From the sequence record OX090893: a stretch of DNA of 64,000 nt. One strand, 5' to 3'. Source of the DNA: Escherichia phage vB_Eco_PATM. A program made the translations under genes and the position numbers. Positions 10,782 through 21,043 of the stretch are shown here, in pieces (within the stretch, counting starts at the first letter, position 1; each line of letters opens with the position of its first letter). The notes under the pieces were generated by a model, which had not been told where the DNA came from, did no database searches, and saw only the letters and a program-made list of their open reading frames with translations.

Positions 10782-11504
10782 TTAAGCAATGATTGCTGCG
10801 ATATTAGGTTTAACAAAGGTAGATGGTTTCATAATTTTACCTTTGTCATCAAAGAATACGTACACCTTTTGAACTTCGTTATATACAGCATGTACCCCAG
10901 TATAAGAACCTTCTGCACGATCTTTGCTTCGCATCTCGATAGCATCGCACTCTTTTTCAAGAGCTTCAATAATATCCTTAGTTTCCCAAATAGCCAGGAG
11001 TTGCTTCTTGGTAGGATACTTGGACTCATTGCTATTCAACACTTCACGCATAACCTTCTTCTCGTTATAAACAGAACGCACCAAAGTATCTCGTGCCATA
11101 CGGGTAAGTGTAAGAGACATTAAGGCAAATTGCAAGTCATTTTCTACCATTTTATCAAATTCAATGATAACATCGTAGATGTTTTCTGCCAGAACATCTC
11201 CTGTCGGCATTTCCAGAGCTTTATCAACACCTTCTTTACCAAAGAACATAAACGCCAGGTAGGATGCTACCACAAAAATATCTGCTGCTGCATCAAGTAA
11301 TTCAACGTGATCATTTTCCTGTGCTGCTGCTTGGAACTCTTTAAGTTCTTCTCGTACAAAAGAAAGTTGAGCTTCAAACATCTCTTGAGTAAATTCTGGA
11401 GTTACTCCACCACGTGCCTTAGCATTCCAAGCAACAATTTGATCGGCAGCTTTGATAAAGAAGCTATTGTCCACTTTTACTTGTTTGAAAAAATTCTCGA
11501 TCAT
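10782..11504 (-). CDS. Hypothetical protein (240 aa), possibly all-alpha NTP pyrophosphohydrolase-like
   Basis: Acidic helical stretch ELLDAAADIFVVASY reminiscent of MazG/dUTPase-like EExxE/D sites; speculative. Confidence 0.35.
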   Translation of the reverse strand: MIENFFKQVKVDNSFFIKAADQIVAWNAKARGGVTPEFTQEMFEAQLSFVREELKEFQAAAQENDHVELLDAAADIFVVASYLAFMFFGKEGVDKALEMPTGDVLAENIYDVIIEFDKMVENDLQFALMSLTLTRMARDTLVRSVYNEKKVMREVLNSNESKYPTKKQLLAIWETKDIIEALEKECDAIEMRSKDRAEGSYTGVHAVYNEVQKVYVFFDDKGKIMKPSTFVKPNIAAIIA

Positions 11505-11701: not shown

Positions 11702-12865
11702 TTACTCTGCTGGTTCCCAAGTACCTGGAATCATCTTACGTACACGTACCCCAACAGGCTTAGTAGGAATACCTTCGTCTGAAAATTCTTCGTACTCTAT
11801 TTCAACAAATTGACCAATAAGTGTCAAAGCATTTTCTTCTTTACGATAGTTAATGGATTCGTCTGAATCCTTACGCATCAGGAATTCGACTACTTTACCA
11901 TTTTCCATCTCTCCTGTCAATACCCCGTCACCATTTTTATCACGCTTTGCACTTACCACTTTAACTTCAAGCGTCTGACGTGGTTTACGTTTAATAACAT
12001 CATAAGAACGTTTATCAAACTCGTAAACACCTTTTGCATTACGATACACCACACCTTCCGCTTTCTCACGTAGAGCTTTTGCATAGAAAGCATCAAACTG
12101 CTCTTGGTTTTCAATGTACTCTGTATGTACTACACAAATAAGTTCATCTAAACCTTTATCTTCAACAACTTCTTTTAGAGCAGCCAAAACTTGAACCCTC
12201 TTCTCAAATGGTACAGATGCCACAGGAACATCATATACATAGTATTTAAGAAGCGGTGTGTTAGCATTATGCTTTTTCCACGCACTATTAATTTGTTGAA
12301 GGCTAAGGACACCCAAACCAGCAAAAACTTCACCGTCAAGAGGATGACCAACTACTTCTTTAATGAAGGTTGGAATTTCTTCCCAGTGAGGTGGAAGTTT
12401 ATATACCTCCCCAGCTTTAGATAAACATTCACCTTGCATGTTAATCATTGAACGTAGACCATTCAATTTATATTGTGCATAACCTGGGAACAAAACACGG
12501 TCAGCATAATCTTTATAATCCTGACATTTCATGGGTGTGGAAGGAACATGGTTTTCAGCTTCCTCTTTTGTTTTATAATACCCATTCTTAAGTTGCTTTG
12601 TCCATTTGGCAAGAGCTTCTATTTCAGCTTGTTCTTCTGCTGTTGTTTCATTGGAGCGACCAATATTTTTAGGTTCTGCCGTATAAGATTTGCTAGTGAT
12701 CTTTCCACCTAATTGACCATGAGCAACAGTTACAACACTACCTTCGGTATAGACTGACCACTGTTTAATTTTACCTGTAGAAGTTTTACCATATAATGTA
12801 GGATTAGTTTGTTTCATCTTTAACCTCCAGTTGCGAAAGAACCCATTTAGCCATTTCAATTTCAC
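11702..12865 (-). CDS. ATP-dependent polynucleotide ligase (probable DNA ligase); start probably at internal Met near 12817
   Basis: Nucleotidyltransferase motifs: I KLNGLR, IV EGVVYR, V DVIKRK, then a C-terminal OB-like region; about 370 aa. Confidence 0.6.
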   Translation of the reverse strand: MKLKWLNGFFRNWRLKMKQTNPTLYGKTSTGKIKQWSVYTEGSVVTVAHGQLGGKITSKSYTAEPKNIGRSNETTAEEQAEIEALAKWTKQLKNGYYKTKEEAENHVPSTPMKCQDYKDYADRVLFPGYAQYKLNGLRSMINMQGECLSKAGEVYKLPPHWEEIPTFIKEVVGHPLDGEVFAGLGVLSLQQINSAWKKHNANTPLLKYYVYDVPVASVPFEKRVQVLAALKEVVEDKGLDELICVVHTEYIENQEQFDAFYAKALREKAEGVVYRNAKGVYEFDKRSYDVIKRKPRQTLEVKVVSAKRDKNGDGVLTGEMENGKVVEFLMRKDSDESINYRKEENALTLIGQFVEIEYEEFSDEGIPTKPVGVRVRKMIPGTWEPAE

Positions 12866-13558: not shown

Positions 13559-13963
13559 TTATTGTAGCTTAAGTGAACTGCGAAGACGTTCCTCTTGCTG
13601 ATCACGAATATGTTGTGGAACCTCATGAATTGAATCGTTACCGTGCCTATTCTCCACAACTAAAGAAATAACTTGATAACCAAACTCTTCGGCAAGAGTT
13701 AAATAAGGTTTAAGTTCTTTTTCTGTAGTAGAGGTATTAGAAACAATAATCTTTTCAACACCATACTGCATATATTTTTGTACTTTGACACGACACCATT
13801 GGTGTGCTTTATGGATATTCTCTTGTTTCCACTCATACACACCATCTTCAGTGTAGTGGTATTGATCTGCCTCACAAATAGGCCAATGATTTTCAGAGAT
13901 AATTTCTGCTACTGTAGATTTACCTGCACCTGAAACACCACGTAAAATGATAAGTTGTTTCAT
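13559..13963 (-). CDS. P-loop nucleotide kinase (polynucleotide 5'-kinase-like)
   Basis: 134 aa; Walker A GVSGAGKST at residues 9-17; small kinase fold like the kinase domain of polynucleotide kinases; directly abuts the ligase-like gene. Confidence 0.55.
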   Translation of the reverse strand: MKQLIILRGVSGAGKSTVAEIISENHWPICEADQYHYTEDGVYEWKQENIHKAHQWCRVKVQKYMQYGVEKIIVSNTSTTEKELKPYLTLAEEFGYQVISLVVENRHGNDSIHEVPQHIRDQQEERLRSSLKLQ

Positions 13964-14896
13964 TTAGCCTCCAAAGAAGTTTTCTATTTCTTTACGTCGC
14001 TCTTGTGGATCTAGAGCAGCCCATTGAACCTTCGTAAAGTTATTTCGAAGCCATTCTAGCAAAGTATAATATTCTTCGTCAACAATTTGTTTAGCATTGT
14101 TTGGGTTGTCCCAAATCATATCCCACTTCTTATTGCCACCACGCATAAGGAACTTCTTAGCAAGATAGTATGGTGACTTAATCTTTAAGAGTAAGTTAAA
14201 CGGATAGTTTGTTTCACGAACAACAAAGCCTTCGTGTCTACAATGTTTAGACATTTCAACAACATCTGAAAATTTAATCATCGGATAAACTTCAGGACGT
14301 TTAAATTTTGTAATAGATGCAATCCCATCAAGAACACCTTCAGGTAACATGAAACTTGTCCCGTCAAGATTTTGAATTCTTGCTCCAATTAAGTATGCGC
14401 CTGGTTCTTCTTCGACAATATGTGGATCAGAAGGATCACAGATTTCAAAAAGGAAAGTTGCTTTTGCACTTTCTGTCCACTTAATGAAATACTCTATGTC
14501 ATCACACTCGGAAACAATACGGTTCTTGGCAATAGTTGCAAAGTCTGATTCTAGGCTCCCTGTTGTTGATACAACAAGTTTCCCTTTGTACACACCTACA
14601 GATGCCATAAAACCGTTTACTTTACGGACAGCATCTACAATTTCGTCTGCTGGAAGATCTGTACCATTTTCAAAACGATTAAAGATTTTAGTAAAAGGCC
14701 AAATAACAACATTGTCTTCTGAGTCAACAACCAACCCACGACAATCTAGAAGTCGTTTGTCAACGTTCCACAAATTATCCCAGAATACATTGTTTTTGTA
14801 TTTAAGCACAGCAAGACCAGCATACTCTCCAGATTTAACTTCTTTTTTATGCACTAAACCTTTTACAATCAGGTCATCACAATTGAACTTAGCCAC
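13964..14896 (-). CDS. RNA-ligase-like nucleotidyltransferase (Rnl/Trl1-type)
   Basis: 310 aa; motif I KVNG, motif IV EGFVVR, motif V LLKIK; KxNG is the Trl1/Rnl1-type variant. Confidence 0.55.
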   Translation of the reverse strand: MAKFNCDDLIVKGLVHKKEVKSGEYAGLAVLKYKNNVFWDNLWNVDKRLLDCRGLVVDSEDNVVIWPFTKIFNRFENGTDLPADEIVDAVRKVNGFMASVGVYKGKLVVSTTGSLESDFATIAKNRIVSECDDIEYFIKWTESAKATFLFEICDPSDPHIVEEEPGAYLIGARIQNLDGTSFMLPEGVLDGIASITKFKRPEVYPMIKFSDVVEMSKHCRHEGFVVRETNYPFNLLLKIKSPYYLAKKFLMRGGNKKWDMIWDNPNNAKQIVDEEYYTLLEWLRNNFTKVQWAALDPQERRKEIENFFGG

Positions 14897-14897
14897 C

Positions 14898-15449
14898 TTA
14901 ATCTCCTTTGATTATCTTATGATGGTCTACAACAACAATATCACGCTTATCCATAATAGAGATGATTTCGTCAAAATGCAAGATTTTCCCGTGTGCATCC
15001 CAACCAACATCCAACATCTTCCCATACAAATGGTCAGGGAATGATCCGTGAGAGTGTCCGTGTAGCATGATTGATCCATGCCCTTGTTTATTCCAGGCAG
15101 CCATAGGGTAATGGCTTAAGACGAAAAACAGCTTCTGATATTTCACTTCGTCATAATAAACCACTTCTCCATACTCTGCAAGCACTTTTCTGTGTTTACT
15201 GTAATCATGGTTTCCAACACAGTAAGTAATATCCCCTTGGAGACGGGAAGCAATCTTACGGGTATCTTCTTCAGTCCCGAAACAGAAGTCCCCAAGATGG
15301 TACATCTTTACTCCTGGTGTTGTGGCACATTTATTCCATGCTTCGATCAGTGCTTCTGTCATATGCTCCATATCTTCCCACGGGCGATATTCAGGAGCAA
15401 ACTCTCGGATACGTTTGTGCATAAAATGCAAATCACTTGTAATAAACAT
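14898..15449 (-). CDS. Calcineurin-like metallophosphoesterase
   Basis: 183 aa; DLHFMH, GDFCFG, GNHD, HGHSH metallophosphatase motifs in canonical order. Confidence 0.7.
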   Translation of the reverse strand: MFITSDLHFMHKRIREFAPEYRPWEDMEHMTEALIEAWNKCATTPGVKMYHLGDFCFGTEEDTRKIASRLQGDITYCVGNHDYSKHRKVLAEYGEVVYYDEVKYQKLFFVLSHYPMAAWNKQGHGSIMLHGHSHGSFPDHLYGKMLDVGWDAHGKILHFDEIISIMDKRDIVVVDHHKIIKGD

Positions 15450-15811
15450 TAGTATAATCCCTCGCTGAATAGTTCACTGTTGTGACCATTTCTTTCGTAG
15501 TTAATTTGTTTGGCGTTATCTGCAATGATATAAGCATCTTTTCGACTCCACCAATTATAATACTGATCAATAAACCCTTGATTATCAGGTAAGCAAAACA
15601 GCTTATCGATCAATCCTGCATCTTTTAAAACATTAAGTTGTGCAGATAGTACAGGATTTGCATGCCTAACACAAGGAATAATTAACTCTTCACCATTGTT
15701 GAGAATATACTTATTCGCAGCGCAGACTATAACACGTTGAGCATAGTGATCCTCACCAATCCAGGTAAGAGGTTGGTAACAAATATCATGTTGATTAGTA
15801 GCGCACATCAA
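15449..15811 (-). CDS. Hypothetical protein (120 aa)
   Basis: ORF adjacent to the phosphoesterase; no motif. Confidence 0.4.
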   Translation of the reverse strand: MMCATNQHDICYQPLTWIGEDHYAQRVIVCAANKYILNNGEELIIPCVRHANPVLSAQLNVLKDAGLIDKLFCLPDNQGFIDQYYNWWSRKDAYIIADNAKQINYERNGHNSELFSEGLY

Positions 15812-15966
15812 TTTTCTCCATACTCTTTTAGTCTATCAGCGAAAAAACTGTAATCAGGAAGTAAAAGATCATTACTCGTATCGCTCCAGTTCTCTTCCTC
15901 TCTATAGATAAAATGCCCTTCATCCTCTTCTTGCTCTGACCAAACTGAATAATGCATAATACCTAC

Positions 15967-16341
15967 TTAATAGTTAACACGTTTAATTTCAACACCATAG
16001 GATGAAATAAAATTTTCCTTAGCTAACATATATTTACCAGCAGCAGAAGGATTTGATGTATGAACATAGATAGTTTTAAGAGCATCCCATTCACCCGCGT
16101 ACAACATACATTCTACATCCAAGAACGCATGATAGCCTTCTTGATCTTCCCCAAGATCATTATCGAAGTGTATTTCTGATATATTGTTGAAATTATCTTC
16201 ATCTGAAACAAAAGATGACCAATCCCCAAAAGATTTTAACCAAATGGCATCCTCATAACCATAATCTTTAGGATCTCTTAAATCGTCTAACCAAAGAATT
16301 TTAGCCACTATCAACCTCCTTCCTGTTTCTCTTCTTTCCAA
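15967..16341 (-). CDS. Hypothetical protein (124 aa)
   Basis: ORF; N-terminal ILWLDDLRDP; no assignable motif. Confidence 0.4.
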   Translation of the reverse strand: MERRETGRRLIVAKILWLDDLRDPKDYGYEDAIWLKSFGDWSSFVSDEDNFNNISEIHFDNDLGEDQEGYHAFLDVECMLYAGEWDALKTIYVHTSNPSAAGKYMLAKENFISSYGVEIKRVNY

Positions 16342-16502
16342 GTTTTACCTTTATCTACCAATTTCTTAGAAACAGCAAATCTTTCCCCATTGATATAAAA
16401 CAAATAAAGAATAAAGGATTTTCCTATAGTTACAGTATCTACTACTTCTACACGCTTCACACCTTGCATGTATTTGGCTTTACCTGAATAAATAAGAAAC
16501 AT
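16311..16502 (-). CDS. Hypothetical small protein (63 aa)
   Basis: ORF in early block. Confidence 0.3.
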   Translation of the reverse strand: MFLIYSGKAKYMQGVKRVEVVDTVTIGKSFILYLFYINGERFAVSKKLVDKGKTWKEEKQEGG

Positions 16503-16780
16503 TACTTATTCCTTTTGTTGTTGATCACATCTAAAGCTGTGTAAGGCTTGTTTGTACCGCTGTATTCAAGAATAATTGGTACATATTCACAGACCAACTC
16601 AAAAGTACCATACACAGAATCTGCAACTGAAATAAGCATTTCAGTGCCTTCGTCGTTCTTAATTAATGAAAATCTTGCCCCTGGTTTATTGAGCACTTCA
16701 TATTTCTTACCTGCTGTCAGCAAACCTGAATACCATTCATTTTGCACAACAGACAAACACTTCAGATATGTTTTTCTCAT
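16502..16780 (-). CDS. Hypothetical protein (92 aa)
   Basis: ORF in early block. Confidence 0.4.
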   Translation of the reverse strand: MRKTYLKCLSVVQNEWYSGLLTAGKKYEVLNKPGARFSLIKNDEGTEMLISVADSVYGTFELVCEYVPIILEYSGTNKPYTALDVINNKRNK

Positions 16781-17118
16781 TTCTTTTTGCTCCTTCTTTT
16801 AGGCTTCTCGTATAAACCTAACACAGCCGATTCTTTTGCACAAATAGGAACTGACTTCATTCCTCGTTTTTTAGCTTCTGGTAGATTCAAAACCCACCAG
16901 CCAAACCAGTACAATTCATCCTCTGTAAAAGGATCTGCCATAGGATCTGCATCACGTTCTTCAAATTTAGCAAGAGCTTCTTCTATCTTTTCTATTGGAG
17001 TATCAAAGACAAAAGCCTCTGTGTCAAATTTTTGTTTCTTAGGAGCGGCTTTTGCCGCCCCATCTTTAGATGCGTGCTTTGTTACGGATCGCTTCTTCGG
17101 TGTTTTCGCCATCAACAA
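16777..17118 (-). CDS. Hypothetical basic protein (113 aa, Lys-rich termini)
   Basis: KKRSVTKHASKDGAAKAAPKKQK N-terminus and KPKRRSKKK C-terminus suggest nucleic-acid binding. Confidence 0.4.
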   Translation of the reverse strand: MLMAKTPKKRSVTKHASKDGAAKAAPKKQKFDTEAFVFDTPIEKIEEALAKFEERDADPMADPFTEDELYWFGWWVLNLPEAKKRGMKSVPICAKESAVLGLYEKPKRRSKKK

Positions 17119-17305
17119 CCTCCATGCGGTGTAAGAAATCTTGCTGGAATCGCCAATACTGTTGACCAGTCCTTACATCTTCGTAGATCACAACAGGATC
17201 AAATACTTTAGCTACACCTGCTGGTTTAGGGAAGCCAACTACACGATATAAACCACCTTTGCTAATACAAGAATATGTTACATCAGTTAAAATTTCTTTT
17301 TTCAT
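17066..17305 (-). CDS. Hypothetical small protein (79 aa)
   Basis: ORF in early block. Confidence 0.35.
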   Translation of the reverse strand: MKKEILTDVTYSCISKGGLYRVVGFPKPAGVAKVFDPVVIYEDVRTGQQYWRFQQDFLHRMEVVDGENTEEAIRNKARI

Positions 17306-17499
17306 TTCTTAATAAACTCCAATACAGGTACGTGATCAGCAGTTAAAGTTACACAATTGTAACTTACCTTTTCAACTTCAGAGAATGCTTCAACCCATAG
17401 CAAGAAATTCTCTTTAGCCTCTTCATAATTCAATGTTGACTTAACAACATGGAACTCACCAAGGATTACTCTATAGATTGTTTGCATAGTTTGATTCAT
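17302..17499 (-). CDS. Hypothetical small protein (65 aa)
   Basis: ORF in early block. Confidence 0.35.
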   Translation of the reverse strand: MNQTMQTIYRVILGEFHVVKSTLNYEEAKENFLLWVEAFSEVEKVSYNCVTLTADHVPVLEFIKK

Positions 17500-17565
17500 T
17501 TATTTTTCCTTTGTTTAAAATGTGTTAAACAATCGCAAATGCTTGTGACGCACTTTGTGATTCCA

Positions 17566-17934
17566 CTAATTAATGTCAGCACTATGATTGTTGAGAGTAT
17601 AGGATACTCCATCGCCCAAGTCAACATGAATCTCAACTCCTAACTGTCTTTCTAATGGTAAACGTTTTGAGAATTGATAATTACAAAGTTTACAGTCTAA
17701 GTCAAGCAACTCATGTTTGCTTAAACCTGCGACGATAACTTTGCTCCCCACTGTCCACTCAATACCTTCAAAGTTATCTCTTCTTTTCAAAATGTCAAGT
17801 AAGAAGATGATTTGTTGCCATTCCGTAGACAAGTCTTCTTCATAGAATGCAGAACAAAAAGTTTTATCATCGTAGAAAGCATACATTATGCCTCCATCTA
17901 TTGTTTCACTTCTAACGTAACGTGTGACCCTCAT
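17566..17934 (-). CDS. Hypothetical protein (122 aa), first gene of the leftward block
   Basis: ORF starting next to the divergent intergenic region. Confidence 0.45.
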   Translation of the reverse strand: MRVTRYVRSETIDGGIMYAFYDDKTFCSAFYEEDLSTEWQQIIFLLDILKRRDNFEGIEWTVGSKVIVAGLSKHELLDLDCKLCNYQFSKRLPLERQLGVEIHVDLGDGVSYTLNNHSADIN

Positions 17935-18065
17935 TATTCCCTCCTGTATGGCTCTGTAACGAGCTAATGGCCTCTAAGATATGCAATCACCTTACCTCAC
18001 AGTAAAACTCGTTACAATCGTTTTTAGGAGGTTCAGGTTGTACTTAAAAATAATCTAAAAAGGTG

Positions 18066-18094
18066 TTGACAAACGCAAAAAAGTATGCTACCCT
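18066..18094 (+). promoter_or_regulatory. Sigma70-like promoter (TTGACA-17-TACCCT, weak -10)
   Basis: TTGACA at 18066-18071 within the AT-rich divergent region. Confidence 0.35.
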
Positions 18095-18276
18095 AACCCC
18101 CGAAAAACGCCGAGCGCAGCGAGGTGGGTGTTATCTAATCTTGTGATACATGATCTAACAGACAACTGAGTAGTCTACACATAGCACTATGTTATGTCTC
18201 TAATACTAACATACATACTCTATACTAACAATAGATTCTTTATTAATTTTATTATTAATTAAATAATAAATATCTA

Positions 18277-18305
18277 TTGACTTTAGATTTATCTGTATGT
18301 AGAGT
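18277..18305 (+). promoter_or_regulatory. Sigma70-like promoter (TTGACT-17-TAGAGT)
   Basis: Hexamers with 17 nt spacer about 40 nt upstream of the 18345 start; RBS AAGGAG precedes the ATG. Confidence 0.55.
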
Positions 18306-18344
18306 AGAGAACATAAAGTCCTAACTCAACTAAGGAGATAAACA

Positions 18345-19238
18345 ATGAAAGTTAGTATTCTACATGGTGTTGGCTGTTATGTTACTGATGTAGACGTTAA
18401 AGTCTTTACATTCTCTGGTGGAGAACAACATGTTCAACTAGACACGAATCTATCAGGTTTCAATCATGCTACAGACAGAATCTTACTCTCTTTAGAAGTA
18501 AGATCTGCTAAAGACTTGATGACTTTGGTTATGACTAAGAATGCATTGGACAATATGCTATATCATAAACCATATTGTGTTGATTTGCTCATGTTGTATG
18601 TGCCATATGCACGACAAGACAGAGTGTGTGAACCTGGGGAAGCATTCGGAGTTAAAGCATTTGCTTCTATAATTAATTCATTAAATTTCTCACGTGTTAT
18701 CGTTGCTGATCCACATAGTGATGTTACTCCAGCAGTGTTTGACAGACTCTGTGTAATACCTCAAGAAGAGATTGCTTACGAAACTTTAAAGTGGAAGTTA
18801 CGTATGGAGAATTTTGCTCTTGTTAGTCCTGATGGTGGTGCTCTTAAGAAAATATTTAAATTATCTAAGAAAATGTCTTTAGATGTGTTCTGTGCAGAGA
18901 AGGTTAGAGATACTGCAACAGGTGCTATTGTTCGTACAGACATTTCTGTACAGGATTTCAATAAGCGTAACCTGATGATCGTAGATGATATCTGTGATGG
19001 TGGTAGAACTTTTATTGAGTTGGCTAAAGTGCTACGTGCTCGTAACGCAGGTAAGATTGAGTTATATGTTACACACGGTATCTTTTCTAAAGGTCTTAAA
19101 GAGTTAAGTGAGCACTTTGACTGCATTCATTCTCTTAATGTGTGGGAAGATAACATCCAAGAAGATTCCGGTGTTCTTGTTAAGAATCAGTCAGATTTGC
19201 AACAACAAATTGTATCTCCATACGTGTGGAATTTTTAA
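18345..19238 (+). CDS. Ribose-phosphate pyrophosphokinase (PRPP synthetase)-like enzyme; candidate ADP-ribose pyrophosphate synthetase of an NAD+ reconstitution pathway
   Basis: 297 aa; PRPP-binding loop LMIVDDICDGGRT; directly followed by a NAMPT-like gene. Confidence 0.65.
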   Translation: MKVSILHGVGCYVTDVDVKVFTFSGGEQHVQLDTNLSGFNHATDRILLSLEVRSAKDLMTLVMTKNALDNMLYHKPYCVDLLMLYVPYARQDRVCEPGEAFGVKAFASIINSLNFSRVIVADPHSDVTPAVFDRLCVIPQEEIAYETLKWKLRMENFALVSPDGGALKKIFKLSKKMSLDVFCAEKVRDTATGAIVRTDISVQDFNKRNLMIVDDICDGGRTFIELAKVLRARNAGKIELYVTHGIFSKGLKELSEHFDCIHSLNVWEDNIQEDSGVLVKNQSDLQQQIVSPYVWNF

Positions 19239-19309: not shown

Positions 19310-21043
19310 ATGAATATTTTTGCACCTTTTGCTACTGATTGGTATAAACCTGGTCACAAGCAGATGTACAACCAAAATACAAAACTCATTTTCTCTAATT
19401 TAACTCCTCGTAATGATAAAAACTTTGCACACTATGCAGATCGTGAAGCACGTGGTGTGATTGTTTTAGGTATTCGTCGAGCAGTCACTGATGCTCTTGT
19501 AACTATGTGGGACAGCTTCTTTAAAATGTCTCGTAGTGCAGCAGTAAATAAATTTTATCGTATGTCTAAAAATGCATTAGGTGCTTCTGCTCCTTCTGCT
19601 GAATGTTGGGGAGAATTGCACGATTTAGGTTATCTTCCGCTAGAAGTTCGATCTCTGCCAGAAGGTGTTTTGTGTCCTATTGGTGTTCCTGTGTTTACTG
19701 TGCATAATACTTTAGAAAAATTCTTTTGGTTAACTAACTATGTGGAAACACTCTTGTCAGATGAAACTTGGAAGACAATGACTAATGCCACAGCAGCTTT
19801 TCAGTATAAGCGTATCGCTATGGCGTATGCGATGGCAACGTGTGATAACATTGATCACGTTAATTTCCAGTGTCATGACTTTAGCCTACGTGGTTTAAGC
19901 AATATCGAAGATGGTTATAAGAGTGGTATCGCTCATTTGGCATCTTTCACAGGTACAGATAATATTCTGGCTATTGAAACTGTGCATGATTACTATGGTA
20001 TTGATTATGATCAGTTTGTTGCAGGTTCTATTCCGGCAACAGAACATTCAGTAGCAACGACTAACATTGGAGCTATTGTTGAAGATCTAAAGGAACATTT
20101 TCCACGTCTTAAAGCTGATGTAGATTGGCTTCGTTATGTAGCAGAAAAAGAGTTTCTTCGTCGTTATATTGAAGAAATTGTTCCAGAAGGTTTTTGTTCA
20201 TATGTAGCAGATTCTTATGATTACTGGACTGTATTGACTAACATTCTGGTAGAGTTGAAAGATTCCATCATGTCACGAAATGGTCGTCTTGTTATTCGTC
20301 CAGATTCAGGAGATCCGGTTAAAGTTGTTGCAGGATACAATGTTGAATCTTTTGATAACTATGAAGATCTTTTAAATAATGGTATTGCTACAGCCACTGA
20401 AGTAGTACATTTGGCTGATGTTAATAAGTATTACAATGTTCTTCAGGATTGCAGTGTTGCTGATTGTATTGATGAAACTTATGAGATTCCTTATTGTGAA
20501 GCAGTAGGTTCTATTCAAATCCTTTGGGAAGTGTTTGGTGGTACTATCAACCGAAAAGGCTACAAGGTTCTTGATCAGCACATCGGTATGATTTATGGTG
20601 ATTCTATTACTGTTGAACGAGAACACGAGATCTTACGCCGACTGAAGAAGAAAGGTTTTGCAGCTTCCAATATTGTATTTGGTGTTGGTAGTTATACTTA
20701 TCAGTTCAATACACGAGATACTTTTGGTTTTGCTGTTAAAGCAACAGGTAGTATCATCGGTGAACACGAAATTTTGGTAAGTAAAGAGCCTAAAACTGAT
20801 CCTGGTAAACGCTCTGCAAAAGGTTTTATTAAGGTTGTTAAGGATACAAATGGTAAACTTTCTCTTGTGGATAATCTTTCTTTTAAAGATATCCAAGATG
20901 AAGACAATGAGTTAAAAGTTATCTTCAGGGATGGTACGGTTATTACACCACAAGTAGAAGGACGTGATGAAACATTTACTGATATCCGCAACCGTGTTGA
21001 TGTAGAGGTTCTTCGTACTATGGGAACCATCCAGGTTGACTAA
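19310..21043 (+). CDS. nadV: Nicotinamide phosphoribosyltransferase (NAMPT/NadV)-like enzyme; candidate nicotinamide ADP-ribose transferase
   Basis: 577 aa; length and gene pairing with the PRPP-synthetase-like gene fit phage NadV-family enzymes; no single diagnostic motif verified by eye. Confidence 0.6.
   Translation: MNIFAPFATDWYKPGHKQMYNQNTKLIFSNLTPRNDKNFAHYADREARGVIVLGIRRAVTDALVTMWDSFFKMSRSAAVNKFYRMSKNALGASAPSAECWGELHDLGYLPLEVRSLPEGVLCPIGVPVFTVHNTLEKFFWLTNYVETLLSDETWKTMTNATAAFQYKRIAMAYAMATCDNIDHVNFQCHDFSLRGLSNIEDGYKSGIAHLASFTGTDNILAIETVHDYYGIDYDQFVAGSIPATEHSVATTNIGAIVEDLKEHFPRLKADVDWLRYVAEKEFLRRYIEEIVPEGFCSYVADSYDYWTVLTNILVELKDSIMSRNGRLVIRPDSGDPVKVVAGYNVESFDNYEDLLNNGIATATEVVHLADVNKYYNVLQDCSVADCIDETYEIPYCEAVGSIQILWEVFGGTINRKGYKVLDQHIGMIYGDSITVEREHEILRRLKKKGFAASNIVFGVGSYTYQFNTRDTFGFAVKATGSIIGEHEILVSKEPKTDPGKRSAKGFIKVVKDTNGKLSLVDNLSFKDIQDEDNELKVIFRDGTVITPQVEGRDETFTDIRNRVDVEVLRTMGTIQVD

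Follow-up and report, generated by a model that had tools for sequence, protein, structure and literature searches.

A mosaic of small conserved genes at the head of a leftward operon in Escherichia phage vB_Eco_PATM, two of which may serve RNA end-healing and sealing

The block of small open reading frames (ORFs) at positions 15449-17934 in the DNA of Escherichia phage vB_Eco_PATM (sequence record OX090893; "the window" is the whole 64,000-nucleotide stretch that was analysed) consists of ten small, mostly coupled genes that form a mosaic and not one system. The genes are numbered O1 to O9 by position, with a further candidate, O8b, between O8 and O9 (Table 1). On balance, and with modest confidence, we favour the view that this mosaic makes up the promoter-proximal end of a long leftward operon in which O3, a cREC-domain protein, and O6, a protein with Lys-rich termini, serve RNA end-healing and sealing. 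In the pathway that we propose, O3 would open cyclic phosphates without a metal; a calcineurin-like phosphoesterase encoded three genes downstream of O3 would remove the resulting monoester; a P-loop kinase would phosphorylate 5'-OH ends; and an Rnl1-type ligase would seal them. The pathway as a whole would undo the cuts that metal-independent ribonucleases of the host make in tRNA or other RNA, and O6 would be its nucleic-acid-binding (probably RNA-binding) accessory. The analysis shows that the genes are real and gives their families, their linkage and predicted folds; each biochemical step, the RNA substrate, nucleic-acid binding by O6 and the timing of expression are inferred. Judged by its closest matches, the source phage is a Justusliebigvirus, a phi92-like myovirus of the Stephanstirmvirinae, because in a megablast search of deposited phages with 15000-18400 the best match is Escherichia phage outra (99.2% identity) and, of the 122 phage records matched, 55 have at least 80% query cover at an identity of at least 95%.

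The original prediction found no recognisable motifs in any of these ORFs, a statement that has to be revised for two: O1 falls in the Arn.3 family (discussed below), and O3 matches the Pfam family cREC_REC (PF20274) with an E-value of 3.9e-13 and 50.3 bits (cut-off 27) over residues 15-103 of the 124-amino-acid (aa) ORF. UniRef likewise names O3 a cREC domain-containing protein. In an alignment of six lineages the homologs from phAPEC8, phi1_175008, Tr1, rV5 and PVP-SE1 are 46-56% identical, and the motifs W-x-DD-x-R-x-P, FDNDLG, VHTSNP and K-x-MLA are invariant, as are the acidic residues D8, D9, D49 and D51. With the strand placement of these residues following the published cREC topology, O3 keeps what can be read as the receiver-type acidic pocket (DD...D). 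cREC domains, as described by Iyer, Burroughs and Aravind, are receiver-like, never occur with histidine kinases, and are found only in RNA-repair and NAD/ADP-ribose contexts (PMC9503650, PMC7824862); they are predicted to resolve 2',3'-cyclic phosphate RNA ends and 1''-2'' cyclic ADP-ribose (ADPr) phosphate (PMC9503650). The neighbours of O3 place it in just such a context: genes for RNA ligase, kinase and phosphoesterase, one that is MazG-like and, directly across a spacer, PRS-like and NAPRTase-like genes that lie 71 nucleotides (nt) apart and have the apparent architecture of NARP1 (Adps plus Namat), here called the NARP1-like pair. cREC has neighbours of the same pattern in rV5, PVP-SE1 and KpS8, where its gene stands directly behind the RNA ligase gene; in this phage the esterase, O1 and O2 separate the two. 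GenBank carries the misleading labels "RNA ligase and tail attachment protein" and "nudix hydrolase" for O3.

The Lys-rich termini of O6, which the original prediction had singled out (for the ORF at 16777-17118), are real: in 34 homologs a nearly invariant MAKTPKK is followed by a Lys/Pro/Ala-rich N-terminal tail of variable length, and a run of Lys/Arg forms the C-terminus. AlphaFold2 places between them a 65-aa beta-alpha-alpha-beta-alpha core with a predicted local distance difference test (pLDDT) score of 82-91; the tails score 48-61 and are predicted to be disordered. Homologs of O6 occur in 341 phage records, and their neighbourhoods are consistent. In every Stephanstirmvirinae locus examined, O6 shares an operon with the phosphoesterase and precedes it by 0.8-2.3 kb; in PVP-SE1 the phosphoesterase gene stands immediately behind the O6 homolog, in KpS8 one small gene lies between them, and in the Plateaulakevirus Aeromonas phage 2L372X, phosphoesterase, RNA ligase 1 and kinase come straight after the O6 homolog. 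Linkage of O6 to the phosphoesterase/ligase/kinase set is thereby seen in three phage groups. From this linkage and the disordered basic tails we infer that O6 acts as an accessory to the esterase/cREC module and probably binds nucleic acid (probably RNA). The GenBank label "transposase-like" was rejected for O6, which has no recognisable transposase, integrase or helix-turn-helix domain or fold.

A count of genes within 6 kb of O6 in 13 lineages found the phosphoesterase in 12 of the 13, cREC in 11, the NARP1-like pair in nine and an Rnl1-type ligase in seven. The ligase and kinase appear to be the movable part of the set. In phAPEC8, phi1_175008, Tr1 and the loci L026 and L027, O6 and cREC stand in a locus that lacks both RNA ligase and kinase, and the full-length esterase is kept in all of these except phAPEC8, where it is cut to its first 62 residues (locus L004, 3854-4039), a truncation from which it follows that a deletion removed the ligase and the kinase. 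Since relatives keep O6, cREC and the esterase after the loss of ligase and kinase, these three genes are the stable core. The ligase of the window shares 78% identity with PVP-SE1 gp106 and the kinase 67% with gp108, compared with 46% for cREC and its PVP-SE1 counterpart, which suggests that the ligase-kinase pair has moved horizontally.

Several results weigh against an assignment of O3 and O6 to RNA end-healing. The same five ligase- and kinase-free Stephanstirmvirinae loci imply that O6, cREC and the esterase do not strictly need a phage ligase, and most of the co-occurrence comes from two related subfamilies, so that the count contains few independent observations. The cREC domain was called experimentally uncharacterised by its describers (PMC9503650, PMC7824862), and the literature holds no measured activity of any cREC protein and no later experimental paper that we could find. 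The sirtuin that anchors the described cREC neighbourhood is missing from the window, in which the rV5 Sir2-like protein has no match by tblastn (phAPEC8 carries a Sir2-like gene about 30 kb away). The esterase matches Pfam Metallophos_2 below the cut-off (E 3.3e-4), its nearest solved relative being Aquifex aq_1665 (1xm7, E 1.3e-6). Structure prediction with similarity search, which the original prediction had proposed as a check, gave folds for O1 and O6 and a solved match for neither: the O6 core has no fold match in the PDB and only its own uncharacterised family in BFVD, and the confidently predicted fold of O1 matches no solved structure and no family with known function. Seven of the ten genes carry no functional hint at all.

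These seven lineage-restricted genes (O2, O4, O5, O7, O8, O8b and O9) are plausible binders of host or defence proteins, and the whole block can be viewed in this way, as a set of independent host-takeover or anti-defence proteins that bind host proteins and stand at the start of an early operon. We regard this as possible, if on the unlikely side, and for the seven unassigned genes it is compatible with the RNA end-healing reading of O3 and O6. The original prediction had pointed out that phages commonly keep such genes in this position, and the surroundings bear this out in part, as apparent counter-defence genes flank the block: the NARP1-like pair, the MazG-like gene and the RNA-repair set. 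The T2 homolog of O1 also has motA on one side and arn/asiA on the other. O2, a small protein, is strongly acidic (charge -11), its stop overlaps the O1 start in an ATGA-type junction, and it adjoins cREC here, in phAPEC8 (where it is 80% identical to phAPEC8_00129, with a ratio of nonsynonymous to synonymous substitution rates, dN/dS, of 0.08) and, in a more diverged form, in phi1_175008. O5 and the genes between O3/O4 and O8/O9 vary among lineages; O5 itself, 65% identical in phAPEC8 and 62% in the IMG/VR locus L027, is limited to the Justusliebigvirus/Phapecoctavirus branch and absent from phi1_175008 and Tr1. Another small Stephanstirmvirinae protein, Ksap2 (Bas60_220), is the known Avs2 trigger of Bas60.

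Conservation counts against this view: O1, O3, O6, O7, O8 and O9 are common to the whole subfamily and are therefore unlike a fast-turnover anti-defence hotspot or typical inhibitors of that kind. O4 is 73-76% identical in phAPEC8 and phi1_175008 (dN/dS 0.07), and, in three lineages each, O7 is 72-74% (dN/dS 0.14-0.16), O8 53-59% and O9 34-48% (dN/dS 0.18) identical; O9 homologs occur in 132 phage records, all of Stephanstirmvirinae. Database searches also tell against independent anti-defence proteins. PADLOC models gave no match at E <= 1 for any of the ten ORFs, and NCBIfam gave no meaningful matches. Searched as single sequences against PDB chains, O1, O3, O6, O7 and O9 had no match with an E-value under 0.1, and the alignment profiles of cREC and of Arn.3 gave nothing either. 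No experiment on any block protein was found in the literature, and a consensus scan found no convincing sigma-70 promoter for the leftward operon that would support early timing. Two known proteins were considered as members of the block and rejected: Atd1, the anti-TIR protein reported in Justusliebigvirus and Phapecoctavirus, is a MazG-like enzyme and none of the nine ORFs, and Bas60_220 (Ksap2) lies outside bas60_0245-0253, the Bas60 equivalent of the block. Ordinary housekeeping proteins, whose recognition the original prediction named as its refutation, did not emerge either, as the homology searches gave no housekeeping function for any of the ORFs.

O1 deserves separate treatment. By homology, it belongs to a widespread family, that of T4 Arn.3: PF26092 is precomputed for all 21 of its close homologs, tblastn finds 46% identity to the T2 arn.3 gene (E 8e-23), and relatives occur in 1535 of 50,697 phage records, about 3% (Tevenvirinae, Ackermannviridae, jumbo phages and others; tblastn). 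A full scan of 1.8 billion representatives yielded 319 relatives, among which the Arn.3 domain is about 95 aa long and always C-terminal; in the ten longest of 150 representatives, the extension that precedes it has no Pfam domain. Across the family, R48, H49, G78, F79, A92, L113, S115 and E116 are invariant, and V28, A30, A31, Q77, D81, R89, Q101, L118 and Y119 nearly so, a pattern, enzyme-like in its invariant polar residues, that looks like a ligand or active site. The label "anti-restriction nuclease" (Arn, the McrBC inhibitor) was rejected for O1, since the T2 match falls on arn.3 (156862-157323) and not on arn (156002-156280); as these positions indicate, the label is a mis-transfer from the neighbouring arn gene, which belongs to the cluster motA - arn.4 - arn.3 - arn.2 - arn.1 - arn - asiA. 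According to a 2026 preprint, arn.1-arn.4 have no known function and are part of a middle transcript. The neighbourhoods of Arn.3 genes in four unrelated phages, T2, Kuttervirus Se-J, Serratia phage 2050HW and Pantoea phage F5M2A, showed no recurring partner. As a single case, the Arn.3 homolog of Pantoea phage vB_PdiM_F5M2A, a Certrevirus, has a NADAR-domain gene two genes downstream (locus L015, 3664-4425).

The NARP1-like pair raises another explanation, which we hold to be unlikely: that cREC and the esterase, perhaps with O6 and O1, are NAD-salvage helpers of the pair across the spacer. cREC would open ADP-ribose (ADPR) cyclic phosphate, the esterase would strip ADPR-1''/2''-P, and ADPR would be regenerated for Adps/Namat, which would make the two enzymes a functional analogue of Adpp, the Macro-domain phosphatase of NARP1-AP. 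The NARP1 preprint shows a PRS-like plus NAMPT-like architecture in Bas63 genes 79-80 and reports that the intermediate ADPR-PP spontaneously yields ADPR-cyclic-phosphate, and in a later preprint an ADPR-1''P phosphatase (Macro-domain Adpp) extends NARP1 to NARP1-AP; these observations fit such a helper, as does the predicted action of cREC on 1''-2'' cyclic ADPr phosphate (PMC9503650). So too does the distribution of the pair, which is present in nine of the 13 lineages and is transcribed away from the cREC/esterase operon in Stephanstirmvirinae as well as in Seunavirus/Mydovirus (here and in PVP-SE1, KpS8, phi1_175008 and Tr1), and phi1_175008, L026 and Tr1 have NARP1-like genes, cREC and esterase with no RNA ligase. 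Yet phAPEC8 and L027 keep cREC and the esterase (truncated in phAPEC8) with no NARP1-like pair nearby, the rV5 cREC stands beside a ligase with no such pair within the 15 kb examined, and the helper known so far, a Macro domain, is encoded within the NARP1 operon and not divergently from it. A form of this explanation centred on the stable core, in which O6, cREC and the esterase, possibly with O1, process cyclic or phosphorylated ADP-ribose and feed ADPR to the NARP1-like pair (example substrates being ADPR-cyclic-P from the NARP1 intermediate and ADPR-1''P from aRES-type defences), seems to us quite improbable. If true, such a core would be a non-Macro, two-enzyme equivalent of NARP1-AP, and its substrate the first to be assigned to cREC.

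A reading of the nine ORFs as annotation artefacts, or as frames left open by chance in AT-rich DNA, can be dismissed: the ORFs are indeed small (49-122 aa), long chance ORFs are common in DNA of 37% GC, and several antisense ORFs of similar size are present, but the nine ORFs have syntenic homologs whose proteins are conserved down to 34% identity with saturated dS, Shine-Dalgarno sites upstream of most starts, a PHROG family (of unknown function) matched by each, and a GC skew consistent with their strand over the leftward block. The homologs of each ORF, found by tblastn in phAPEC8, Klebsiella phage phi1_175008 and/or Citrobacter phage Tr1, are 34-83% identical in aa sequence, and dN/dS (Nei-Gojobori method) is 0.0-0.26 across the block wherever dS is unsaturated. 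For these reasons the nine ORFs are genuine genes under purifying selection.

The packing claimed in the original prediction is equally real, with amendments: there are ten genes, O8b having been missed, and three starts are shifted by comparison with annotated records and Shine-Dalgarno sites. That of O1 moves from the TTG at 15811 to an ATG, that of O3 from 16341 to a GTG behind GGAGG, and that of O6 from 17118 to an ATG behind GGAGG. From the esterase leftmost to O9, successive junctions measure -1, -1, +9, +2, -1, -4, -47 and -4 nt, followed by an apparent gap of 66 nt, and most of the genes are translationally coupled. The -47 junction is an out-of-frame overlap of the last 47 nt of O7 with the start of O6, kept in four lineages (the window, phAPEC8, phi1_175008 and Tr1). 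The overlap between O9 and O8b is also exactly 47 nt.

The apparent gap between O9 and O8 is itself covered by an ORF, O8b, whose TGA overlaps the ATG of O8 (ATGA). Read from an internal ATG (17612), O8b encodes 38 aa with one hydrophobic helix and a basic C-terminus (MEYPILSTIIVLTLISGITKCVTSICDCLTHFKQRKNK). It is syntenic with the annotated 38-aa phAPEC8_00138, which has the same layout; the similarity is weak (35% identity over 26 aa, pairwise E 0.001). Among 10 Justusliebigvirus genomes O8b has six variable sites, five of them at its third codon position (p about 0.02 for at least five of six sites on one codon position; binomial), and two of these five changes alter the overlapping O9 frame, so that the substitutions favour the frame of O8b above that of O9. 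The C-terminal 22 residues of O9, which overlap O8b at the 3' end of the O9 gene, are unconserved in relatives. Synteny and frame statistics together indicate that 17496-17612 is probably a gene.

The block is equivalent to phi92 gp098 to gp106A/B and to outra_22 to outra_29, and its nine minus-strand ORFs match coding sequences annotated in phi92, outra and JLBYU50. All nine proteins have exact deposited matches, all of them hypothetical, including in BASEL phages Bas60-62; the block is thus made of conserved hypothetical genes that have been deposited since the phi92 genome and are already known. The suggestion that an undescribed system might be sought here is not upheld, as all nine proteins are on deposit and the type of neighbourhood around cREC has already been described in silico (PMC9503650); two or three of the genes appear to belong to the adjoining RNA-repair/NAD-salvage set. 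Records named as "Campylobacter phage" A150, A145, C3 and A110a match this coliphage at 97.4% identity along the entire query and are probably mislabelled or contaminant phi92-like phages.

Table 1. Genes and elements of the block and of its surroundings, with positions in the window
Feature	Position	Strand	Basis or remark
O1 (phi92 gp098), 119 aa	15449..15808	-	Arn.3-family domain PF26092
O2 (gp099), 49 aa, pI 4.1	15808..15957	-	phrog_18323
O3 (gp100), 113 aa	15967..16308	-	cREC domain, Pfam PF20274
O4 (gp101), 63 aa, basic	16311..16502	-	phrog_15376
O5 (gp102), 92 aa	16502..16780	-	phrog_10169
O6 (gp103), 111 aa	16777..17112	-	basic, predicted disordered tails around 65-aa core
O7 (gp104), 79 aa	17066..17305	-	phrog_12584; DUF1653-like, sub-threshold
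O8 (gp105), 65 aa	17302..17499	-	phrog_15683
O8b, candidate tenth gene, predicted 38-aa single-pass membrane peptide	17496..17612	-	synteny, frame statistics
O9 (gp106A), 122 aa, acidic; first gene of leftward operon	17566..17934	-	phrog_14390
Calcineurin-like metallophosphoesterase (context, immediately downstream of O1)	14898..15449	-	Pfam Metallophos_2, sub-threshold
Rnl1-type RNA ligase (context)	13964..14896	-	Pfam RNA_lig_T4_1, E 3.6e-14
P-loop AAA_33 kinase (context)	13559..13963	-	Pfam AAA_33, E 1.8e-10
ATP-dependent DNA ligase (context)	11702..12817		
MazG-like/PRA-PH pyrophosphohydrolase (context), homologous to rV5 ORF85	10782..11504	-	
PRS-like gene (context)	18345..19238	+	Pribosyltran/Pribosyl_synth domains
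NAPRTase-family gene (context)	19310..21043	+	NAPRTase domain
Promoter-like element	18066-18123	+	TTGACA (18066-18071), 17 nt, TGC-TACCCT (18086-18094)
Invariant box CCGAGCGCAGCGAG	18110-18123	+	five-lineage alignment

The block had been placed beside a divergent control region, and so it proves: a 410-bp spacer separates O9 from the plus-strand PRS-like gene, and the divergent arrangement is real. In an alignment of five lineages (the window, phAPEC8, phi1_175008, Tr1 and the IMG/VR locus L009) the spacer holds one strongly conserved element, which is unique in the window and restricted to Stephanstirmvirinae-like contigs. The layout TTGAC[AT]-17/18-TGCTACCCT recurs in the other four lineages, with variable spacers. 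The segment 18066-18094 is probably an extended -10 promoter, predicted to fire rightward, towards the NARP1-like pair, and the invariant box would then fall about 10 to 25 nt into the predicted transcript (+10 to +25). An RNA structure was considered for the element and rejected in favour of a promoter, as its seven pairs are invariant and show no covariation; an Rfam scan of 15000-18500 gave no matches, and a search of the spacer for repeats gave nothing convincing. On the leftward side, the O9 start (AGGAGG-N5-ATG) aligns across all five lineages. A further conserved stretch, AGGTAAGGTGATTnnnnATCTTA, lies at about 17965-17995 on the minus strand, 35-60 nt upstream of the O9 start.

These assignments give cREC, a domain with a predicted chemistry, a place between an RNA-repair set and an NAD+-reconstitution pair, and they turn the block into a short list of targets (cREC, the Arn.3 domain and O6) in BASEL phages Bas60-62. 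A function for any of the three would annotate hundreds to thousands of phage genes, and would also correct the misleading labels that are spreading in GenBank.

Comparison with known systems places the genes of the block at differing distances from their nearest described counterparts. The authors of the phi92 genome noted a DUF1653-like fold for O7 (gp104), which is similar to DUF1653 in size; O7 itself, however, does not match DUF1653 (PF07866), and every member of its family that was tested falls below the Pfam gathering score (homologs from phAPEC8 and Pantoea phage Phynn reach 13.5 and 17.8 bits, cut-off 23.5). DUF1653 is itself a family without known function. O1 shares the domain of about 95 aa with T2 Arn.3, but lacks the N-terminal extension of that 153-aa protein; both stand among accessory genes near host-takeover or counter-defence genes, while the neighbours differ, with no arn, motA or asiA beside O1. 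With respect to NARP1 and NARP1-AP, the nearby phosphoesterases could in principle clean up ADPR phosphate derivatives; the candidate helpers here are cREC and calcineurin-like proteins instead of a Macro-domain protein, are encoded on the opposite strand, and also occur where NARP1 is absent.

For the RNA end-healing reading, the closest functional parallel is T4, in which tRNA repair by Pnkp and Rnl1 counters the PrrC anticodon nuclease. The logic would be shared, by analogy: 2',3'-cyclic phosphate and 5'-OH ends are healed, and an Rnl1-type ligase seals them. T4 uses one bifunctional kinase-HAD phosphatase for the healing, whereas here it would be split over cREC, the calcineurin-like esterase and the AAA_33 kinase, and no target nuclease is known for phi92-like phages. 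The closest genomic parallel is the neighbourhood "prototyped by Escherichia phage V5 and Proteus phage Mydo", described in silico as a set of sirtuin, T4-like ligase, cREC, nucleotide kinase, MazG pyrophosphatase and sometimes a calcineurin-like esterase (PMC9503650). The window differs from it in having no sirtuin and in the position of cREC, which is not directly behind the ligase, and the relatives of this phage differ in keeping cREC after the loss of ligase and kinase; in common with it, the window holds the ligase, the cREC, the kinase, the MazG-like gene and the calcineurin-like esterase.

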